From: an uncultured Dehalococcoidaceae bacterium | GTDB taxonomy: Bacteria > Chloroflexota > Dehalococcoidia > UBA2979 | Direction: 5' to 3' | Assembly: GCA_964479165.1 (NCBI GenBank) | Contig: CAYZJO010000005.1 | Location: forward strand, 30,659 to 94,658 | Length of the DNA: 64,000 nucleotides | Shown here: piece after piece, positions 19,794 to 55,854 of the stretch | How the letters are laid out: every line of letters starts with the position of its first letter | Position numbering within the stretch: the first letter of the stretch is position 1 | Notes under the pieces: model-generated | Told to the model about the DNA's origin: nothing | Seen by the model: only the letters and a program-made list of their open reading frames with translations | Databases searched by the model: none | Program-made: the position numbers and the translations under genes

Positions 19794-20981
19794 GTGACAG
19801 CTACCGAGACGACGACCGAGTCTGAACGAGACCCCGACAGACAACAGTTCCGTCCTCCCGCACGCGGGGAGCACGTCCCCGATGTCCTCGAGTTCCCGGT
19901 CGGCCCGATCCACTTCCGGTTCGCGCAGCGCGGCGACGAGCCGGCACTCCTGGCCGCAGTCGACCGAGGCTTCGAGCGGTGGCCACCCTTCCCGGTGCAG
20001 GGCACCCGCGAGGACCACGTGGGTTGGTTCGTGGATTCGTGGAAGCCCGGAGAGAGCCTTACGTGCGTCGCGGAGCACGAGGGGCGCATTGCCGCGTTTG
20101 CCCTCGGCTACCGGCGCGAGATGTGGATCCGAGGCGAACGGCTGACGGGTGGCCTCGGCGCGTACGGCGCCGTCGACCCCGACTACCGCCGGATGTACCT
20201 CAATCACTGGTTCGGCGAATGGAAGCGCGAGCGGGACGGGCGCGATATCGGCGGCGCGTTTTCACAGGTCGAGGGCATCCTCCGGACGCGGGAGCGTCGA
20301 GGGACCTCGGTGCCTCTCGGGAACCCGCTTACCGTCTTCGCACGTATCTTCGACCCGCTGCACGCGTCGGGCCACGAGGGCTTCGAAGCGCTGAAGCGCA
20401 CGCCGGGCTACCTGGCATTCAGCCTGCAAGGAAGCCTCCGACAGCGACGCGTTCGCCGCCGGTACTGGGCGATCCGCACAGTGGACCGGTTCGACGAGCG
20501 GGTGGACGCCCTCGTCGAGGAGTCGGCTCGAGCCGAGTTCGACTACCTCCCGGGCCGCAACCACCAGTTCCTCAACTGGCGCTATTTCGATCGGCGCACC
20601 GGGCCGGCGATCGGCCTCGTTGCCGAGGACGGCGACCAATTGCTGGGTTATGCGGTGCTCCGTCCCATCAAGATGCGCGGCCACATCGCCGACGTGCTCG
20701 CCCGTCCCGGGCGTGCCGACGTGGCCCGGTCGCTCATCGACCAGGGACTGCGTCGCTTACGCCTTGATGGGCTGGCTGGCGTCGAATGCACGCTCCCACA
20801 GCATCATCCCTACATCGGGGCGCTGCGGTCGGCGGGATTCGTCCGCCTCCCCGAGCGCTCACGGGTGATGGCGCTGAAGTTCAGCGTGTCGAAGCGCCTC
20901 GGATCGGATGTCGACCTCGCGTTCCTCGCCGATCCTCACGCGCGGATGCACGTCACGATGGGCGACTCTGACATGATCTAG
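19794..20981 (+). CDS. Tandem-GNAT-fold protein, paralogue 1
   Basis: VDPDYRR acetyl-CoA-type motif, FLNWRYFD, GYAVLR, GHIADVL; AAGGAG SD before GTG. Confidence 0.75.
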   Translation: MTATETTTESERDPDRQQFRPPARGEHVPDVLEFPVGPIHFRFAQRGDEPALLAAVDRGFERWPPFPVQGTREDHVGWFVDSWKPGESLTCVAEHEGRIAAFALGYRREMWIRGERLTGGLGAYGAVDPDYRRMYLNHWFGEWKRERDGRDIGGAFSQVEGILRTRERRGTSVPLGNPLTVFARIFDPLHASGHEGFEALKRTPGYLAFSLQGSLRQRRVRRRYWAIRTVDRFDERVDALVEESARAEFDYLPGRNHQFLNWRYFDRRTGPAIGLVAEDGDQLLGYAVLRPIKMRGHIADVLARPGRADVARSLIDQGLRRLRLDGLAGVECTLPQHHPYIGALRSAGFVRLPERSRVMALKFSVSKRLGSDVDLAFLADPHARMHVTMGDSDMI

Positions 20982-21031: not shown

Positions 21032-22213
21032 CTGAACGAGGTAACAGCGACCGCACAGTCCCCCCAGTCCCTGCAAACGGGCACCCCTCCGGCTCCAGAC
21101 GAGCGGGTCCCCAACGAGGTTGAGTTCTCCATCGGTCGAGTTCGGTTCCGTGCTGCGGAGATGGACGATGTTCCAGCGCTCCTGACCTCGGTGAAGCGGA
21201 CCTTCCCCGGGTGGCCGCCCTATCCCACCGGCGGCACTGAAGAAGACTTCATGCGCTGGTTCATCGACTCCTGGCGTCCGGACCAGCGCCTGACGTGGGT
21301 CGGGATGCACGAGGGCCGCGTCGCCGCACTCGCGTTGGGCTACTGCCGGCCGACCTGGCTGCGCGGGCAGCTGATGGAGGGGAGCCTTGGCGCGTACGGG
21401 GGCATCGATCCCGACTACCGACGCATGTACCTGTACAACTGGTTCCGCCAGTGGAGAACCCAGAACGACGGCCGCGAGCTCGCCCTCTCGTTCACGCAGG
21501 TAGAGGCGGTCCGGCGGACGCAGTCGCACGTGGGCGACTACCGCCCGGTCGCGAACCAGCTCGGGGTGTTCGCCCGGATCTTCCGGCCGCTGGAGGCGTC
21601 CGGCCGTGGCGGCTTCCAGGGGTTCAAGCGCGCCCCCGGCTACTTCGCCCTGAAGGGGGAGAGCAGGATCCGGCAGCGTCCGCCCGCCATTCCGGCGACG
21701 TGGACCATCCGAGAGGTCAGCGCGTTCGACGAGCGAACCGACCGGCTCGACGAGGTCTGCGCCACGGAGTTCGACCTGCTCCCGTGGCGGGGCCACGAGT
21801 TCCTCAACTGGCGCTACTTCGACCAGCGGACCGGCCCGACGGTCGGGTTCGTGGCGGAGGACGGTGGCGAGCTGCTGGGCTACGCGGCGCTCCGCACGGC
21901 GTGGAGCCGCGCCAATCTCGCCGACCTGCTCGTGCGGCCGGGCCGGAGAGACGTGGCCCGCTCACTGATCGATGCGTGCGTCGCACACGCGGAGGCAGCG
22001 GGTGCCGCCGCCATCGAGTGCACGCTGCCCTGGCACCACCCGTACCTCCCGGCGCTGCGCACGGCCGGCTTCGTGAACCTGCGTAACCGCTCGCGTGTGA
22101 TGGCCTACAAGTTCAACGTGGCAAGCTGGCACCCGGACCCGCACCTGCTCGACTTCCTCGCGGACCCGCACGCGCGCATCCACGTGATGATGGGCGACTC
22201 CGACATGGTCTAG
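21032..22213 (+). CDS. Tandem-GNAT-fold protein, paralogue 2 (probable non-AUG start)
   Basis: Colinear with paralogue 1 to the C-terminal DPHARxHVxMGDSDM; homology extends 5' of the ORF-track ATG 21161; AAGGAGG at 21019-21025 precedes in-frame CTG 21032. Confidence 0.72.
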   Translation: MNEVTATAQSPQSLQTGTPPAPDERVPNEVEFSIGRVRFRAAEMDDVPALLTSVKRTFPGWPPYPTGGTEEDFMRWFIDSWRPDQRLTWVGMHEGRVAALALGYCRPTWLRGQLMEGSLGAYGGIDPDYRRMYLYNWFRQWRTQNDGRELALSFTQVEAVRRTQSHVGDYRPVANQLGVFARIFRPLEASGRGGFQGFKRAPGYFALKGESRIRQRPPAIPATWTIREVSAFDERTDRLDEVCATEFDLLPWRGHEFLNWRYFDQRTGPTVGFVAEDGGELLGYAALRTAWSRANLADLLVRPGRRDVARSLIDACVAHAEAAGAAAIECTLPWHHPYLPALRTAGFVNLRNRSRVMAYKFNVASWHPDPHLLDFLADPHARIHVMMGDSDMV

Positions 22214-23680: not shown

Positions 23681-23780
23681 GTTCTCCGCCTATCCAGCAG
23701 CTCGTCCTCGCACTCACGTTGGTGTCGAGGCAGGCCGCAACGAGCCGCATAGTACCCGATCGATCTCCCCTCACCTCAAT

Positions 23781-23809
23781 CCTCTCCCACAAGGGGAGAG
23801 GAGGCCGGA
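23781..23809. repeat. REP-like palindrome family A, intergenic copy
   Basis: CCTCTCCC-ACAAG-GGGAGAGG-AGGCCGGA; identical outside the loop to 30029-30057. Confidence 0.75.
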
Positions 23810-23852
23810 CTCCTGCTCCCCCACCGAAGGAAGCCAGCGCGCCTCGGACACG

Positions 23853-29522: not shown

Positions 29523-29598
29523 GCCCTCGTAGCTCAGGGGACAGAGCAACGGACTTCTAATCCGCAGGTCGGAGGTTCGAATCCTCCCGAGGGCGCCA
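29523..29598 (+). tRNA. tRNA-Arg(UCU)
   Basis: Full cloverleaf: GCCCTCG/CGAGGGC acceptor, CT-TCT-AA anticodon loop (29556-29558), GGAGG-TTCGAAT-CCTCC T-arm, encoded CCA; TAAGAT -10 at 29502-29507. Confidence 0.97.
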
Positions 29599-29619: not shown

Positions 29620-30507
29620 ATGGCCCCGGCCCGGGACGGCAGCGAGCGTGGCGAGGTGCAGGTCGACGGACGCGTCATCGGCTACCGCGTGGTCCGCAGC
29701 AAGCGCCGCCGCCGGACGTTCGAGATCGCGCTCCGGCCTCGCGAGGGCGTCGTCGTCGCCGCGCCGGCGCGCGCGTCACGTCGCGAGGTGGCGGAGGCGG
29801 TGCTGCGCCACGCCGGCTGGATCCTCCGCACGAGCGAGCGCGCCGAGCTCGAGCCTCGGAGGCCCTTCGCCGACGGGGATCCGCTCCCGTTCCTCGGTGA
29901 GACGCTGGCCCTCGGCATCGAGCGTGGCCGGGTGCGTCGTGCGAGGGCTGAGCGCGTGGGGCAGCGGCTGGTGGTGACGCTGCGGGCGCCCTCTCCTCAG
30001 TCCGCCGAGCGCGGGGATACCCCGCAGGCCTCTCCCTTTATGGGAGAGGAGGCCGGAATCTCCTCGGCTATCAATGGTGCCGAGGTCAGAGCGCTCTCCC
30101 TGTTCGACTGGGGAGGTGCTTCGGTCGCCTCTCTCGCCTTCGACTCCGACTCCGACGCAGACATCGAAACCGCGCTTGAGCGGTGGTACCGCGAGAGGGC
30201 TGCGGAGGAGTTTGCGGCGCGCGTCGGGCGGTGGGCGCCCGAGGTGGGTGCGGCGCCCTCGAGGGTGCTCGTGCGGGCGCAGCGGCGGCGGTGGGGCAGC
30301 TGCGCCGCTGACGGGTCCCTCCGCTTTAACTGGCGGCTGATGCTCGCGGACGCGGACATCGTGGACTACGTCGTGGTGCACGAGCTGGCGCACCTCCTCG
30401 TGCCCAGCCACGCGCAGGCGTTCTGGAACGTGGTCGCGCGCGTGCTGCCGGACCACCGCACGCTGCGGCGGCGGCTGGTTGAGGCAGGGCCTAGCCTGTA
30501 CATGTGA
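29620..30507 (+). CDS. YgjP/SprT-like (DUF45) zinc metallopeptidase with internal insertion
   Basis: RRWGSC, FNWRL, DYVVVHELAHL, HAQAFW; extra about 45 aa near 29995-30150. Confidence 0.88.
   Translation: MAPARDGSERGEVQVDGRVIGYRVVRSKRRRRTFEIALRPREGVVVAAPARASRREVAEAVLRHAGWILRTSERAELEPRRPFADGDPLPFLGETLALGIERGRVRRARAERVGQRLVVTLRAPSPQSAERGDTPQASPFMGEEAGISSAINGAEVRALSLFDWGGASVASLAFDSDSDADIETALERWYRERAAEEFAARVGRWAPEVGAAPSRVLVRAQRRRWGSCAADGSLRFNWRLMLADADIVDYVVVHELAHLLVPSHAQAFWNVVARVLPDHRTLRRRLVEAGPSLYM
30029..30057. repeat. REP-like palindrome family A, intragenic copy
   Basis: CCTCTCCC-TTTAT-GGGAGAGG-AGGCCGGA inside the peptidase CDS. Confidence 0.75.
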
Positions 30508-38490: not shown

Positions 38491-38524
38491 AGCGAACCTC
38501 GCCGGGCGGCAGGGAGCTCCACTC

Positions 38525-38597
38525 CCGTTCGTACTGACCTTGTCGAAGTACGCGTCCGAGCGATGCGGGCGCTCTTCAAGAGCCTCGCGGCGAACGG
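38525..38597. repeat. REP-like family B, degenerate intergenic copy
   Basis: CGTACT-GACCTTGTCGA-AGTACG hairpin (38530-38552) plus outer CCGTTCG/CGAACGG inverted repeat. Confidence 0.6.
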
Positions 38598-51454: not shown

Positions 51455-52759
51455 CTACCCGCCCGACACGACCTCCCCGAGGGCCGCGCGCGCTGCCTCG
51501 ATGGTGGCGTCGATCGTCGCCTCGTCGTGCGCCAGCGAAACGAACCACGCCTCGAACTGGGACGGCGGGAGCAGGACGCCCTGCTCGAGCATCGCGGCGT
51601 GGAATCGAGCGAACGCGTCGGTGTCGGACTCGCGCGCCTCGTCATAGTTGTGCGGTGGCTCGCCGCGGAAGAACGGCGTCAGCACAGACCCCACCCGCGA
51701 CACCGCCAGCTGCACGCCGGCCTCTGCCGCCGCGCGCTCGAGGCCAGCCTGCAGCCGCGCGCCCAGCTCCTCGAGGCGTGCGTACGCTCCCTCCGTTGCG
51801 GTGATGGCATCGAGCATCGCGATGCCGGCGGCCATCGCGAGCGGGTTACCGGAGAGCGTACCGGCCTGGTAGACGTCGCCGGCTGGCGCCATGCGCTCCA
51901 TCAGGCGCCTCGGCCCTCCGAAGGCGGCGACCGGCAGCCCGCCTCCGATCACCTTGCCGAGCGCCGTGAGGTCGGGCATGACGCCCGTCCGCTCCTGCGC
52001 ACCGCCGTAGGCGAGGCGGAAACCGGTGATCACCTCGTCGAAGATGAGCAGCGCCTCGTGGCGGTCGCAGAGCCCGCGCAGTCCCTCGAGGAAGCCGCGT
52101 GCAGGCGGGACGACGCCCATGTTGCCCGCGACCGGCTCGACGATGACGCACGCGATCTCGCCCGGATGCGCCTCGAAGGCCCGCTCGACCGCCGCGAGGT
52201 CGTTGTACGGCGCGAGCACCGTCTGCGCCGCGAACGCGGCAGGCACGCCGGGTGAGTCCGGCAGCCCGAGGGTCGCGACACCTGATCCGGCGGATGCGAG
52301 CAACCCGTCCGAGTGGCCGTGGTACCCGCCCTCGAACTTCAGCACCAGGTCGCGACCGGTGACCGCTCGTGCGAGGCGAAGCGCGGTCATCGTCGCCTCG
52401 GTGCCGGAGGAGACGAACCGCACCATCTCGATTGAGGGCACGGCCTCGATCACGCGCTCGGCGAGCTCCGCCTCCGCCTCGGTGGGCGCGCCGAAGGAGG
52501 TGCCACGCAGGGCCGCCTCGCGCACCGCCTCGACGACGGGCGGGAACGCGTGCCCGAAGAGCAGCGGGCCAAACGAGCACACGTAGTCGATGTACTCGTT
52601 GCCATCGACGTCGCGGACGCGCGCCCCAGTGCCGGAGTAAAGCACCACCGGCTCACCTCCAACGGCGCGATAGGCTCGCACCGGTGAGTCGACGCCTCCG
52701 GGCAGCAGCCCGCGCGCCCTCTCCATCACCTCTCGGGAGCGCGTGTGGTTCAGGCGCAT
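51455..52759 (-). CDS. hemL: Glutamate-1-semialdehyde 2,1-aminomutase
   Basis: [47 protein letters not shown]; start ATG 52757-52759. Confidence 0.97.
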
Positions 52760-53109
52760 GGGATCAGCCTCGAGTCTGGCCCAGCGGGGTCCCCGAGAGT
52801 AGCTCTCCCCGCTCGTGGTGAGCCTGTCGAACCACGAGCCTTCGCAAGCGACGGGAGGCTCGCCCACTCCCCTCGCGCCAGCGCTTCCTTCTTGGCTCGA
52901 GTCCAACCCTTGATCTGGCGCTCACGTTGGAACGCCTCATCCCGCGTTCCCATTTCTTCCTGCCAGACGAGTGTTACGGGGCGTCGAGTTCGGGTGTATC
53001 CCGAGTACGCTCCCGTCTCGTGCCCAACGATTCGCGCCTCGAGATCATCTGTGTGCCCGAGGTAGTAGGACCCGTCCGAGCAGCGGAGCATGTACACCCA
53101 GAAGCTCAA
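52750..53109 (-). CDS. GIY-YIG nuclease (YhbQ/UPF0213-like)
   Basis: [17 protein letters not shown]...RPVTLVW...[16 protein letters not shown]. Confidence 0.88.
52811..52839. repeat. REP-like family B copy, 3' side of GIY-YIG gene
   Basis: GCTCGTGGT-GAGCCTGTCGA-ACCACGAGC, 9-bp stem, 11-nt loop. Confidence 0.8.
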
Positions 53110-53133
53110 CGGAAGGACCGCTCTCCGAACGCC

Positions 53134-53162
53134 GCTCGCCCTTCGACAGGCTCAGGGTGAGC
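53134..53162. repeat. REP-like family B copy, 5' side of GIY-YIG gene (inverted)
   Basis: GCTCGCCCT-TCGACAGGCTC-AGGGTGAGC; loop is the reverse complement of the 52820-52830 loop. Confidence 0.8.
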
Positions 53163-53272
53163 GGGAGAGGAAGGCTCAAGGTGAGCGCGCGGGAGGAGGG
53201 AGGCAGGGTGGGCGCGGAAAAAGGCCACCAGGCTCGGTCCCGTTGCGAAACGGTCGTGCCGTGCGACGACCG

Positions 53273-54277
53273 TCACGACTGCCCGTCCCCCAGCCAGCGC
53301 GCGGCCTCCTTCGCGTGGTAAGTGATGAGGATGTCTGCGCCGGCACGGCGGATCGAGGTGAGCGTTTCGAGGATGATGCGGCGCTCGTCCAGCCAGCCGT
53401 TCGCGGCCGCCGCCTTCACCATCGCGTACTCGCCGGAGACGTTGTAGGCGGCCAGCGGGAGGTCCGTGCGCTCGCGGACGCGGGCGATCACGTCGAGGTA
53501 GGCCAGCGCCGGCTTCACCATGACGATGTCAGCGTCTTCGAGGATGTCCGCCTCGACCTCGCGGAGGGCTTCACGCGCGTTGGCGGGGTCCATCTGGTAC
53601 CCGCGACGGTCGCCGAACGCCGGGGCGGAGTCGGCGGCTTCACGGAAGGGGCCGTAGTAGGCCGAGGCGTACTTCGCGCTGTAGGCCATGATCGGCGTCG
53701 CCTCGAAGCCTGAGTCGTCGAGGGCGTCGCGGATCGAGCCGACGCGGCCGTCCATCATGTCCGAGGGCGCGACGACGTCCGCGCCCGCTTCGGCCATCGA
53801 GACGGCCATCCTCGACAGCAATTCCAGCGACGGGTCGTTGTCCACCTCGCCCGAGGGCGTCAGCAAGCCGCAGTGGCCGTGGTCGGTGTACTCGCAGAGG
53901 CAGATGTCGGCGATGACGGCCAGCTCGGGGTCGGCCTGCTTCAGCGCGCGGATCGCCTGCTGCACGATGCCGTTCGCGTGGTAGCCCTCGGTGCCCTCGG
54001 GGTCTTTCGAGGCGGGGATGCCGAACAGCAGCACCGCGCGCACCCCGAGCCAGCGCAGCTCCGCGGCCTCGGCCTCTAGCTGGTCGAGCGAGAGCCGGAA
54101 CTGGCCCGGCATCGACTCGATCGGCTGCCGCACGTCCGCGCCATGGGTGACGAAGAGCGGGTAGACGAACTGCTCGGGATCGAGGCGCGTCTCGCGGACG
54201 AGGCCACGCAGCGCCTCGGTGCGCCGGGTTCGCCGTGTACGGGTGAATGATTGCGTCCGCCGCCCGACTGTCGTCAC
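53273..54277 (-). CDS. hemB: Porphobilinogen synthase
   Basis: [45 protein letters not shown]. Confidence 0.97.
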
Positions 54278-55854
54278 CGCACCACCTCCCGGGGCTTGCG
54301 CGCCTCGACGCGATCATCCGAGGCGAGCGCCCGCGCCGCAAAGCCGTCCCGCAACGCGTCAATGAGGCCGGGCACCGTGTGTTGGTCGGCGACGACGTCG
54401 GGCAGCAGTCCAAACTCGCGCGCCGTCGCCGCGGTCGACGGACCGATGCAGGCGACGAGCGCGCCCCGCAACGCACCGAAGTCTCCTCCGAGAACGGTGG
54501 CGAGGTTGCGCACGGTCGAGGACGAAGTGAATGTCACGGCGTCCATCTCGCCGGCGCGGACCAGCGCGAGCGCCTCGGCGGGTGGCTCGGCCGGGGGTGC
54601 TGCGACGTAGAGCCGCACCTCGTCGACTGCGGCGCCGGCGGCTCGGAGGCCGTCCGGGAGCGCCGCGCGGCCACCCTCGGCGCGCGGCAGCAGCACCGAG
54701 ACGCCCTCAAGGCCGGTGACGCCAAGTGCTTCGACCACGGATTCCGCGATTGCCTCCGCGGGCACGAGGTCCGCGATCAACCCGCGCGCCCGCAGCGCCT
54801 GCGCCGTCCCCGGTCCGATCGCACAGAGGCGCGTCGAGGCGAAGGCGCGCGCGTCCGCACCAAGGTCGGCGAGTAGGTCGAGCGTCGTCTCGACCGCATT
54901 GGCCGAGGTGAAAACGGTCCAGGCGTACTCGCCCGCGCGCAGCCTCGCGAGGGGAGCCGCGAGCGCGCCTTCTTCGGCGCGGCGCTCCAGCTCGATCGCG
55001 GGGAGCAGCACCGGATGCGCCCCTTCGGCGTGCAGCAACTCCGCGAGCGTCGAGGCCTGGCGCCGGGTCCGCGTGATCAGCACACGCTTCCCGGCGAGCG
55101 GCCCGCCCGCCTCCGCAATACGCGACTGCAACCCGACGACGTCGCCGACGACCAGCAACGAGGGCGCGCCGATCCCCGAGGTGCGCGCCGCCTCCGCGAT
55201 CGTCTCGAGCGTTGCGGTCACGACGCGCTGGCGGGGGGTCGTCGCCGCGTGCACGAGGGCCGCGGGGGTCGAGGCGTCGCGGCCACCATCGATGATGGCG
55301 CGCGCCAACTCCTCGAGGCGTCCGACGCCCATGAGAACGACGAGCGTGTCGGCGGCGTTCGCCATCCGCGACCAGTCGACGGACTGGCCGGGCTTCGTCG
55401 GATCCTCGTGGCCGGTGATGACGGCGAAGGACGACGCAACGCCTCGATGCGTCACGGGGATGCCTCCGGCAGCGACGCCGCCGATGGCCGACGTGATGCC
55501 GGGGATGACCGTGCAGGGGATACCTGCTTCGCCGAGCGCGAGCGCTTCCTCACCGCCGCGACCGAGGACGTACGGGTCACCACCCTTGAGCCGCACGACG
55601 CGCTTCCCCGCAAGCCCGTGCTCTACAAGCGCCGCGTTGATCTCGTCCTGGGTCATCGCGTGGTTGTTCGGCGCCTTGCCGGCGTTCAACAGCAACGCGC
55701 GGGGAGCGCACTCCTCGAGGAGCTCCGCGGGCGCGAGGCGGTCGTAGAGGACGACCTCTGCGCGACGCAGCGCCTCGAGGCCCGCGACCGTGATCAGACG
55801 CGGATCCCCGGGGCCTGCGCCAACGAGCCAGACGTGGCCGACTCGGCTGCTCAT
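54274..55854 (-). CDS. cobA-hemD: Uroporphyrinogen-III C-methyltransferase / uroporphyrinogen-III synthase fusion
   Basis: [21 protein letters not shown]; then VLITR, FTSAN, AIGPGTA, FTSSSTV, CIGPSTA. Confidence 0.95.

Follow-up and report, generated by a model that had tools for sequence, protein, structure and literature searches.

One locus in a 64,000-nucleotide stretch of DNA from an uncultured Dehalococcoidaceae bacterium (the whole stretch is called the window here) raises the question of why the gene for a very small GIY-YIG nuclease, which lies between hemB and hemL, is bracketed by two inverted hairpins with the same loop and different stems. In the original prediction, the arrangement was read as an analog of repetitive extragenic palindromic (REP) sequences and their dedicated nuclease, the REP-associated tyrosine transposase (RAYT). 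Comparison across genomes and metagenomes shows that the hairpin accompanies the nuclease in several phyla. The locus probably represents a minimal single-domain nuclease of the Ssn/UPF0213 type located inside its own cognate hairpin-doublet repeat, which the protein may cleave and mobilize.

A conserved-loop hairpin and its doublet

The pair of hairpins predicted around the gene, inverted and carrying one loop on two different stems, was confirmed in the window, with the right-hand hairpin spanning 53132–53164 (Table 1). The 11-nt loop GAGCCTGTCGA lies at 52820–52830 on the + strand in hairpin A and at 53143–53153 on the − strand in hairpin B, and these are the only two exact matches in the 64 kb, where 0.04 would be expected from base composition; at ≤1 mismatch, the seven matches in the window compared with 3.4 expected are not unusual. 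Both hairpins fold as single-stranded DNA at −9.2 to −11.6 kcal/mol. The stem of hairpin B pairs at 10 of 11 positions on the − strand and at all 11 on the + strand, where one pair is G-T, and the stem of hairpin A is identical in the orthologous loci L082 and L086. The unit made up of the two hairpins and the gene ends in an inverted repeat (I16) with 32-nt arms; metagenome contigs diverge directly outside 52808 and 53164–53167, and the block of 99.2% identity shared by loci L081 and L086 stops at the same end points.

When copies were chosen by the loop alone with the stem left unrestricted, 195 were found in 794 kb, compared with ∼0.9 expected. The inner four pairs beside the loop are 94–96% paired, through CG, GC, and TA swaps, and the stem covariation expected of a folded element was evident among 126 distinct copies, with 183 double-sided changes vs. 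a shuffled value of 66.6 (exceeding all 500 shuffles) and a signal that collapses on sliding the partner column. The 5′ flank, CG(T/C)TC(G/A), is conserved irrespective of pairing. Since the flank is kept whether it is paired or not and the stem is swapped, the 5′ flank and the loop are the conserved parts of the repeat and the stem is the variable part, and the flank is as good a candidate for the recognition element as the loop. A hairpin subfamily with the 12-nt loop GAGCGAAGTCGA and the 5′ flank CGTTCG was observed in L011, L018, and L024 and could be the signature of a nuclease subclade whose specificity has shifted.

The stems are constrained, as the hairpins form a fixed A/B pair (GTGGT/ACCAC and CCCT/AGGG) in one defined doublet, which consists of CCG(T/C)TC, hairpin A (GTGGT-GAGCCTGTCGA-ACCAC), a spacer, hairpin B (CCCT-TCGACAGGCTC-AGGG), and CGA(A/G)CGG. 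In the window the spacer contains the gene; at other places in this genome, and in many further bacteria, it is 12–42 nt long. The window unit (52808–53165) is the same doublet with the ends CCGCTC/GAGCGG, and its gene is antisense to the A-to-B direction. A scan of metagenome contigs for hairpin A, 12–42 nt, and hairpin B matched at least 120 contigs; among the matches listed, there were 77 instances of CCGTTC-GTGGT-GAGCCTGTCGA-ACCAC-spacer-CCCT-TCGACAGGCTC-AGGG-CGAACGG, the doublets had sharp ends and unrelated flanks, the host contigs ranged from 46 to 75% G+C, and the nuclease gene was present in the fetched stretch at two of 80 doublet loci. No target-site duplication or target consensus beyond chance was found at 61 doublet ends, which also had no conserved target tetranucleotide. 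In the genome loci, close hairpin pairs alternate in orientation in 54 cases vs. eight with the same orientation. A single long hairpin is the minimum-energy fold of the doublet, yet the A and B arms complement themselves and not each other, and this fold was rejected; two small hairpins are favored instead.

A partial third half, predicted near 53173–53190, proved to be a real half copy at 53172–53187 that is 94% identical to 53148–53163. Half copies of this make-up (5′ flank, 5′ arm, and GAGCC(T)) have the orientation of a nearby full copy and lie outside it by a few nucleotides in the window, L005, L012, L025, L081, and L082, and similarly shortened copies occur in L015 and L052. Their common end after GAGCC(T), in this handful of cases, would place a candidate break or joining point within the loop. 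Tandem ∼24-nt units (gggctggctgtgggcacatggtt and variants) were also observed in L025 after the half copies, at positions ∼850–1000, which lie downstream of the hairpin. The unlinked copy predicted at 38530–38552 held up in part. It is intergenic and its 5′ flank, CCGTTCG, agrees with the family consensus, but the copy (38529–38553) is weak when taken alone, with two loop mismatches, a 6–7-bp stem, and a fold z-score of −0.9, and we read it as a decayed solo copy.

The nuclease and its hairpins across genomes

The association was followed in 80 loci, with one genome per species, encoding a protein 50–68% identical to the window nuclease in Dehalococcoidia and other Chloroflexota, Sphingomonadales, Beta- and Gammaproteobacteria, and Thermodesulfobacteriota. 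With a hairpin defined by ≤2 loop mismatches to GAGCCTGTCGA and a stem of ≥5 pairs, the same hairpin flanks the homologs across these phyla, as a dedicated nuclease would lead one to expect: a hairpin lies ≤300 nt from the gene on either side in 59 of the 80 loci, upstream in 49, downstream in 53, and on both sides in 43, and 149 of the 213 hairpins fall in the gene-adjacent ∼8% of the DNA. The relaxed loop GAG-N3-6-TCGA places a hairpin beside the gene in 69 loci, and hairpins on both sides are found in 43–47 loci across criteria. Most gene-spanning pairs (37 of 45) are oriented + upstream and − downstream. The upstream hairpin usually begins 40–50 nt ahead of the gene start with its loop on the sense strand, and the downstream hairpin overlaps the final codons with its loop on the antisense strand. 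Nuclease relatives without hairpins were also observed in the sense direction within further conserved operons, namely nrdR-GIY-YIG-RNA methyltransferase and rnc-GIY-YIG-era, in L089 (S. parapaucimobilis) and L090 (S. paeninsulae), and this context may account for the JGI label "tRNA/rRNA methyltransferase" on some such proteins.

The conserved core of the protein comprises residues 1–92 (52834–53109), and residues 93–119 are a read-through of hairpin A and the spacer. Homologs align up to about residue 92 and then diverge, and their tails, such as GSTGSP, PSTGSGRTG, and VRPEPVEG, are translated hairpin; the tail is therefore an incidental read-through. The GIY-YIG invariants Y6, Y16, R26, H30, and E63 are retained. 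An AlphaFold model built with 16 homologs has a predicted local distance difference test score (pLDDT) of >90 over residues 1–80 and <50 over residues 93–108, and consists of a single compact domain (1–92), as is characteristic of the single-domain Ssn proteins of ∼90–150 residues, with a disordered tail. No DNA-binding domain beyond the catalytic core was found, as nothing is conserved or folded past residue 92, and GIY-YIG is the sole Pfam match of the protein, which does not belong to the HUH/Y1 transposases.

The closest solved structures by sequence are the UPF0213 proteins BH0048 (1zg2; E 2e-13) and EF2693 (1ywl; E 3e-12), which are also the best fold matches of the model, followed by the nuclease domain of Slx1. 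The match to N. gonorrhoeae SsnA is 41% identity over 76 residues (47.8 bits, pairwise E 2e-13), and other members of the window nuclease clade score 45–60 bits against SsnA. SsnA itself has no match among solved structures, whereas the window protein matches UPF0213 at E 2e-13, and by these comparisons the clade appears to lie between SsnA and UPF0213. The family comprises 10,903 clusters (50% identity) at E ≤1e-3 and 2,471 at E ≤1e-10, and no NCBIfam family matches the window protein. A second GIY-YIG paralog, 38% identical to N. gonorrhoeae SsnA, was observed on a Thermodesulfobacteriota contig (L026, 331–561), 4.5 kb from a clade member.

Copy number within the genome was estimated by placing the Logan contigs of four metagenome runs on window positions 52000–54000, the region having been found in activated-sludge, wastewater, and soil metagenomes. 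The depth of the gene body equals that of the flanking genome (∼83, 15, 12, and 19 in the four runs), hairpin depth is 14–49 times the genome baseline in the four metagenomes, and contigs break at the hairpins. At least 11 distinct contigs run directly from hairpin A into hairpin B, with 8–28 nt between them, each contig at about single-genome depth in all four runs. Because the depths are proportional across the runs, these assembler depths in mixed communities argue indirectly for a genome that carries a single nuclease gene and roughly 15–50 hairpins, many of them in gene-less doublets, and the count of hairpins thus far exceeds that of nuclease genes, in line with the original prediction of a repeat family.

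The organism belongs to Dehalococcoidia by its HemB homologs, and among its relatives the hemB-hemL junction is filled in two loci and empty in three. The window's unit and stems are retained in L086 and L082, the HemB proteins of which are 94 and 82% identical to that of the window, respectively, so that relatives with the gene at this site also keep the repeats. The empty junctions that an insertion would imply were found in L085 (HemB 93% identical), where hemB and hemL are separated by a 13-nt spacer, and in L087 and L088 (83–84%), where the two genes overlap. The nuclease diverges from that of the window in step with CobA-HemD (84 vs. 88% identity in L086; 69 vs. 71% in L082), and the element therefore looks vertically inherited; this pattern of sequence identity fits long residence at hemB-hemL by vertical descent with losses, and the filled junctions might also reflect independent insertions at the same site. 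In L081 and L086, the unit is 99.2% identical over 377 nt and the sequences are unrelated past the outer end of the downstream hairpin, beyond which L081 enters a uppP-like gene and L086 heads to hemL, a contrast attributable to a unit that has moved, to recombination between repeat copies, or to an artifact in a contig. A 125-residue Asp_protease_2 (retropepsin-like) gene was observed in L088 (2627–3004), inserted between cobA/hemD and hemB in a locus with an empty hemB-hemL junction.

Known systems, a proposed mechanism, and its rivals

The closest known counterpart is the Ssn family of single-domain GIY-YIG nucleases (CDD cd10448, with N. meningitidis SsnA; ∼95 residues), which occurs in several phyla and in which hairpin repeats, termed NTS in Neisseria and SRM in the wider family, border the ssn genes (Chenal et al., 2025, Nat Commun, PMC11893778). 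SsnA acts on single-stranded DNA alone, which it binds and cuts beside the repeat, the conserved 5′ part of NTS/SRM confers direction, homology to Ssn is defined by blastp at E < 1e-10 with 75% coverage, and the authors themselves liken the arrangement to IS200/IS605 and REP elements (PMC11893778). The idea of a RAYT-analogous GIY-YIG nuclease in the original prediction was thus largely anticipated by the Ssn/SRM system (PMC11893778). Within that idea, the association, the covariation, the empty junctions, and the copy number were upheld, and the freely varying stems gave way to a fixed A/B pair. What is new here is the clade that appears intermediate between SsnA and UPF0213, a hairpin with conserved loop and flank that falls outside the published consensus, and the sharply bounded cross-phylum A/B doublet.

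The window system resembles Ssn in its single-domain GIY-YIG protein, in a gene bracketed by hairpin repeats that are also scattered in many copies, and in repeats that consist of a conserved orienting 5′ flank followed by a hairpin. It differs in that conservation falls on the 11-nt loop and the 5′ flank and variation on the short stem, whereas in NTS the stem is conserved and the loop has 3 nt, and in that the repeats are paired in a fixed, sharp-ended A/B doublet and the protein is equally close to UPF0213 and SsnA. For comparison, the N. gonorrhoeae ssnA locus contains 11 NTS repeats in 3.2 kb around the gene. The record used for it (L084; NZ_CP119142.1, 1880219–1883440), a PLSDB "plasmid," is a 2.17-Mb N. 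gonorrhoeae chromosome, and its ssnA lacks an ATG in frame where the start is expected (ATT ATA TGC ACG...), which may be an unusual start or a frameshift. NTS-like SRM inverted pairs (e.g., CGTCACCCCGGCGAAGGCCGGGGCCCAG) were observed in L008 (6474–6581), L019 (1677–1814), L066 (3394–3478), and L075 (1758–1826); the NTS-like SRM and GAGCYTGTCGA families coexist, since both occur in the same genomes (sphingomonad loci).

Likeness to the REP doublets forming hairpins (REPINs) and their RAYTs lies in a single-copy nuclease gene flanked by inverted repeat copies and in the many gene-less inverted doublets (PMC5581495, PMC8266576, bioRxiv 10.1101/2021.07.10.451892), as well as in the alternation of neighboring repeats, as in bacterial interspersed mosaic elements (BIMEs), and in long vertical persistence at one locus. 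The nuclease here is a GIY-YIG enzyme and not an HUH/Y1 transposase (TnpA_REP), the A and B stems differ, which favors two small hairpins over one long one, and the doublet is cross-phylum, suggesting horizontal spread, whereas REPIN populations are lineage-specific. IS200/IS605 elements likewise have hairpin ends recognized as single-stranded DNA, lack target-site duplication, and give rise to short gene-less non-autonomous derivatives, but they use another catalytic family (Y1) and carry their hairpins on one strand, whereas the hairpins here are inverted and no target tetranucleotide was found here. The UPF0213 proteins BH0048 (1zg2, B. halodurans) and EF2693 (1ywl, E. faecalis), the best sequence and fold matches, share a YTRxRxP motif with the window protein but have no function or associated repeat on record within searchable sources. 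Slx1 shares the fold and is a structure-specific nuclease, but it has a RING domain and needs Slx4. The homing enzymes I-TevI and I-BmoI share the catalytic fold, and their gene lies inside a copy of a sequence that is also present without it; the window nuclease, in contrast, has no C-terminal DNA-binding domain, is not in an intron or phage, and is single-copy despite many targets. Literature searches with the loop sequence returned only primers and unrelated papers, although the motif could still stand in the Ssn supplement, and no paper linking GIY-YIG with REPIN, RAYT, or miniature inverted-repeat transposable elements was found in the library searched except the Ssn paper (PMC11893778).

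By analogy with Neisseria SsnA, the protein would bind the hairpin in single-stranded DNA, for example during replication, transformation, or cruciform extrusion, would read the 5′ flank CG(T/C)TC(G/A) together with the conserved loop, the variable stem giving shape only, and would nick the recognized strand close by. Inversion of the hairpins would leave one recognizable hairpin on each strand. More speculatively, nicking might copy or maintain the doublets, as a single-copy RAYT does for REPINs, a role made plausible by the sharp ends, the absence of target duplication, and the contrast of one gene copy with many gene-less doublets; the GAGCC(T) ends of the half copies might then mark the break or joining point inside the loop. 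A wider claim, in which the GIY-YIG clade would be the transposase-like engine of cross-phylum miniature hairpin doublets and would form a convergent second partnership of the REPIN-RAYT type with a near-universal code (CGYTCR plus GAGCYTGTCGA) in hosts of 46–75% G+C, can be advanced only tentatively and is to be doubted. We know of no prokaryotic transposition system that has been demonstrated to be driven by a GIY-YIG nuclease.

Several observations weigh against a cognate nuclease-doublet element of the Ssn type. Between 11 and 21 of the 80 loci have no gene-adjacent hairpin, more distant plasmid relatives (≤53% identity) have neither such hairpins nor SRM, and only two full copies are present in the window. 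The SRM search sequence HGTCWYN(0-2)YYVSBRHN(0-5)WNVSBRGN(0-2)RNCYNB gave no matches in the window and 13 in the 80 loci, none of them flanking the gene, and the hairpin misfits SRM because GTCGA is incompatible with GTCWY. The conserved 5′ ends of Neisseria NTS face the gene, whereas the 5′ flanks of the window type are at the outer ends. By our scaling, the SsnA match corresponds to E ∼1e-9 in a proteome-sized search, which is borderline against the E < 1e-10 cut-off. With regard to mobility, the hemB-hemL element looks old and vertically inherited, with no sign of recent movement at the site, and a comparison of filled and empty junctions gives an inserted block of ∼500 nt, which is larger than the 358-nt unit, with no clean footprint or obvious duplication. 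The copy-number depths are those of metagenome Logan contigs, and some copies could belong to other organisms.

The protein might instead serve only the host in the manner of Ssn, cutting hairpin-marked single-stranded DNA such as incoming transforming or conjugative DNA, a role put forward for Neisseria, in which case the doublets would spread by other means or would be ancient. This is the sole experimentally supported role for an Ssn protein (PMC11893778). It also suits a gene that is single-copy, embedded in a housekeeping operon, apparently vertical, and preceded by a co-directional neighbor in 43 of 57 loci (rough gene call), but it leaves unexplained the exact place of the gene inside the doublet in many phyla, the sharp transposon-like ends, and the near-identical doublets in hosts of 46–75% G+C, and we regard it as unlikely. 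Dehalococcoidia, moreover, are not known as naturally transformable. The placement of the gene precisely in the spacer of an otherwise ordinary doublet would also be expected of a selfish gene of the homing type, for which the doublet was a pre-existing repeat and target; the gene would have invaded one doublet and would cut empty ones to copy itself into them. GIY-YIG enzymes include classic homing endonucleases, the inner ends of the element have 6 nt and 16 nt in common with gene-less doublets of this genome, and one unit occurs in two different contexts (L081 and L086), although the L081 context could be an assembly or recombination artifact at the repeat. A homing gene would be hard to reconcile with a single copy despite dozens of available empty doublets, with a gene nearby in only two of the 80 doublet loci among the matches listed, and with a protein that has a disordered tail and no DNA-binding domain past its catalytic core, and homing seems quite improbable.

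A chance association, with the hairpins acting as terminators, mRNA stabilizers, or a regulatory RNA of the hem genes and the nuclease being an unrelated repair enzyme of the UPF0213 type, would agree with the location of the hairpins within the operon transcript and with nearest solved structures that are UPF0213 proteins of unknown function. It is contradicted, and left with hardly any probability, by the comparative data, the inverted orientation, and the missing terminator features: the association recurs among unrelated gene neighborhoods in 59–69 of the 80 loci, the entire block is missing from close relatives, and the inverted hairpins would present different loops as RNA. A terminator scan found none at hairpins A and B, neither of which is followed by a T-run, the only Rfam match in the window at the gathering score is a tRNA elsewhere, and at a permissive threshold nothing rises over noise in 52650–53300. 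The cognate nuclease-doublet element, if confirmed, would be a second and differently built Ssn-type pairing of nuclease and hairpin, in which recognition is by loop and flank and the stem is free, and it would help to explain how single-stranded DNA is read by a 90-residue protein and to widen the proposed tools based on site-specific single-stranded DNA cutters. The doublet also accounts for a repeat that contaminates predicted genes in many phyla (the tails GSTGSP, PSTGSGRTG, and VRPEPVEG) and offers a sharply bounded element for asking if GIY-YIG nucleases mobilize DNA in bacteria.

The hem operon and other features of the window

The window has a G+C content of 69%, and the placement of the nuclease gene between hemB and hemL, as predicted, is borne out by the Pfam assignments of its neighbors in a minus-strand operon (Table 1). 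The start of hemL was set at the ATG at 52759 by alignment with L085 and L086; with the stop of the GIY-YIG open reading frame at 52750–52752, the end of this frame, which had been expected to run through the left repeat into the start of hemL, does so with a 10-nt overlap. No promoter-like site for the GIY-YIG gene was found in the terminator and promoter scan. Since the gene has no promoter-like site of its own and lies in the sense orientation in the hem operon, it is probably transcribed by read-through.

Table 1. Coordinates of the nuclease gene, the repeat copies, and the neighboring hem genes in the window
Feature	Position	Strand	Description
Whole unit (hairpin A, GIY-YIG gene, hairpin B)	52808–53165		Terminal inverted repeats CCCGCTC... 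/ ...GAGCGGG
Hairpin A	52810–52840	+	Downstream of gene; perfect 9-bp stem 52811–52819 / 52831–52839 (GCTCGTGGT/ACCACGAGC)
Hairpin B	53132–53164	−	∼25 nt upstream of gene start; ccgctcaccct-GAGCCTGTCGA-agggcgagcgg on − strand
Half copy	53172–53187	−	5′ flank + 5′ arm + GAGCCT (cgctcaccttGAGCCT on − strand); 8 nt outside hairpin B
Weaker third partial copy	53204–53214	−	CGCCCACCCTG; family D1
Degenerate solo copy	38522–38556	+	Intergenic; cccgttcgtact-GACCTTGTCGA-agtacgcgtcc
GIY-YIG open reading frame	52750–53109	−	119 codons, TTG start; PF01541, E 3.5e-17, residues 3–74
hemL (glutamate-1-semialdehyde aminomutase)	51455–52759	−	Downstream neighbor; Pfam Aminotran_3 (class-III aminotransferase), E 1.3e-72
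hemB (porphobilinogen synthase)	53273–54277	−	Upstream neighbor, same operon; Pfam ALAD, E 1e-150
cobA/hemD	54274–55854	−	Same operon

A 7-bp hairpin followed by TTT (CGGTCGT-CGCACGGC-ACGACCG-TTT) was observed right after the hemB stop (∼53245–53272, − strand); it is not present in the empty junction of L085 and may belong to the inserted block. An unrelated second hairpin repeat, CCTCTCCC-N5-GGGAGAGG-AGGCCGGA(A/C)TC, occurs in two copies in the window, at 23780–23812 and 30028–30060, the latter ∼430 nt downstream of a tRNA (29523–29595). Elsewhere in the window, two segments 1232 nt apart (20535–20981 and 21767–22213) are 78–83% identical with like ends and resemble tandem paralogous genes.

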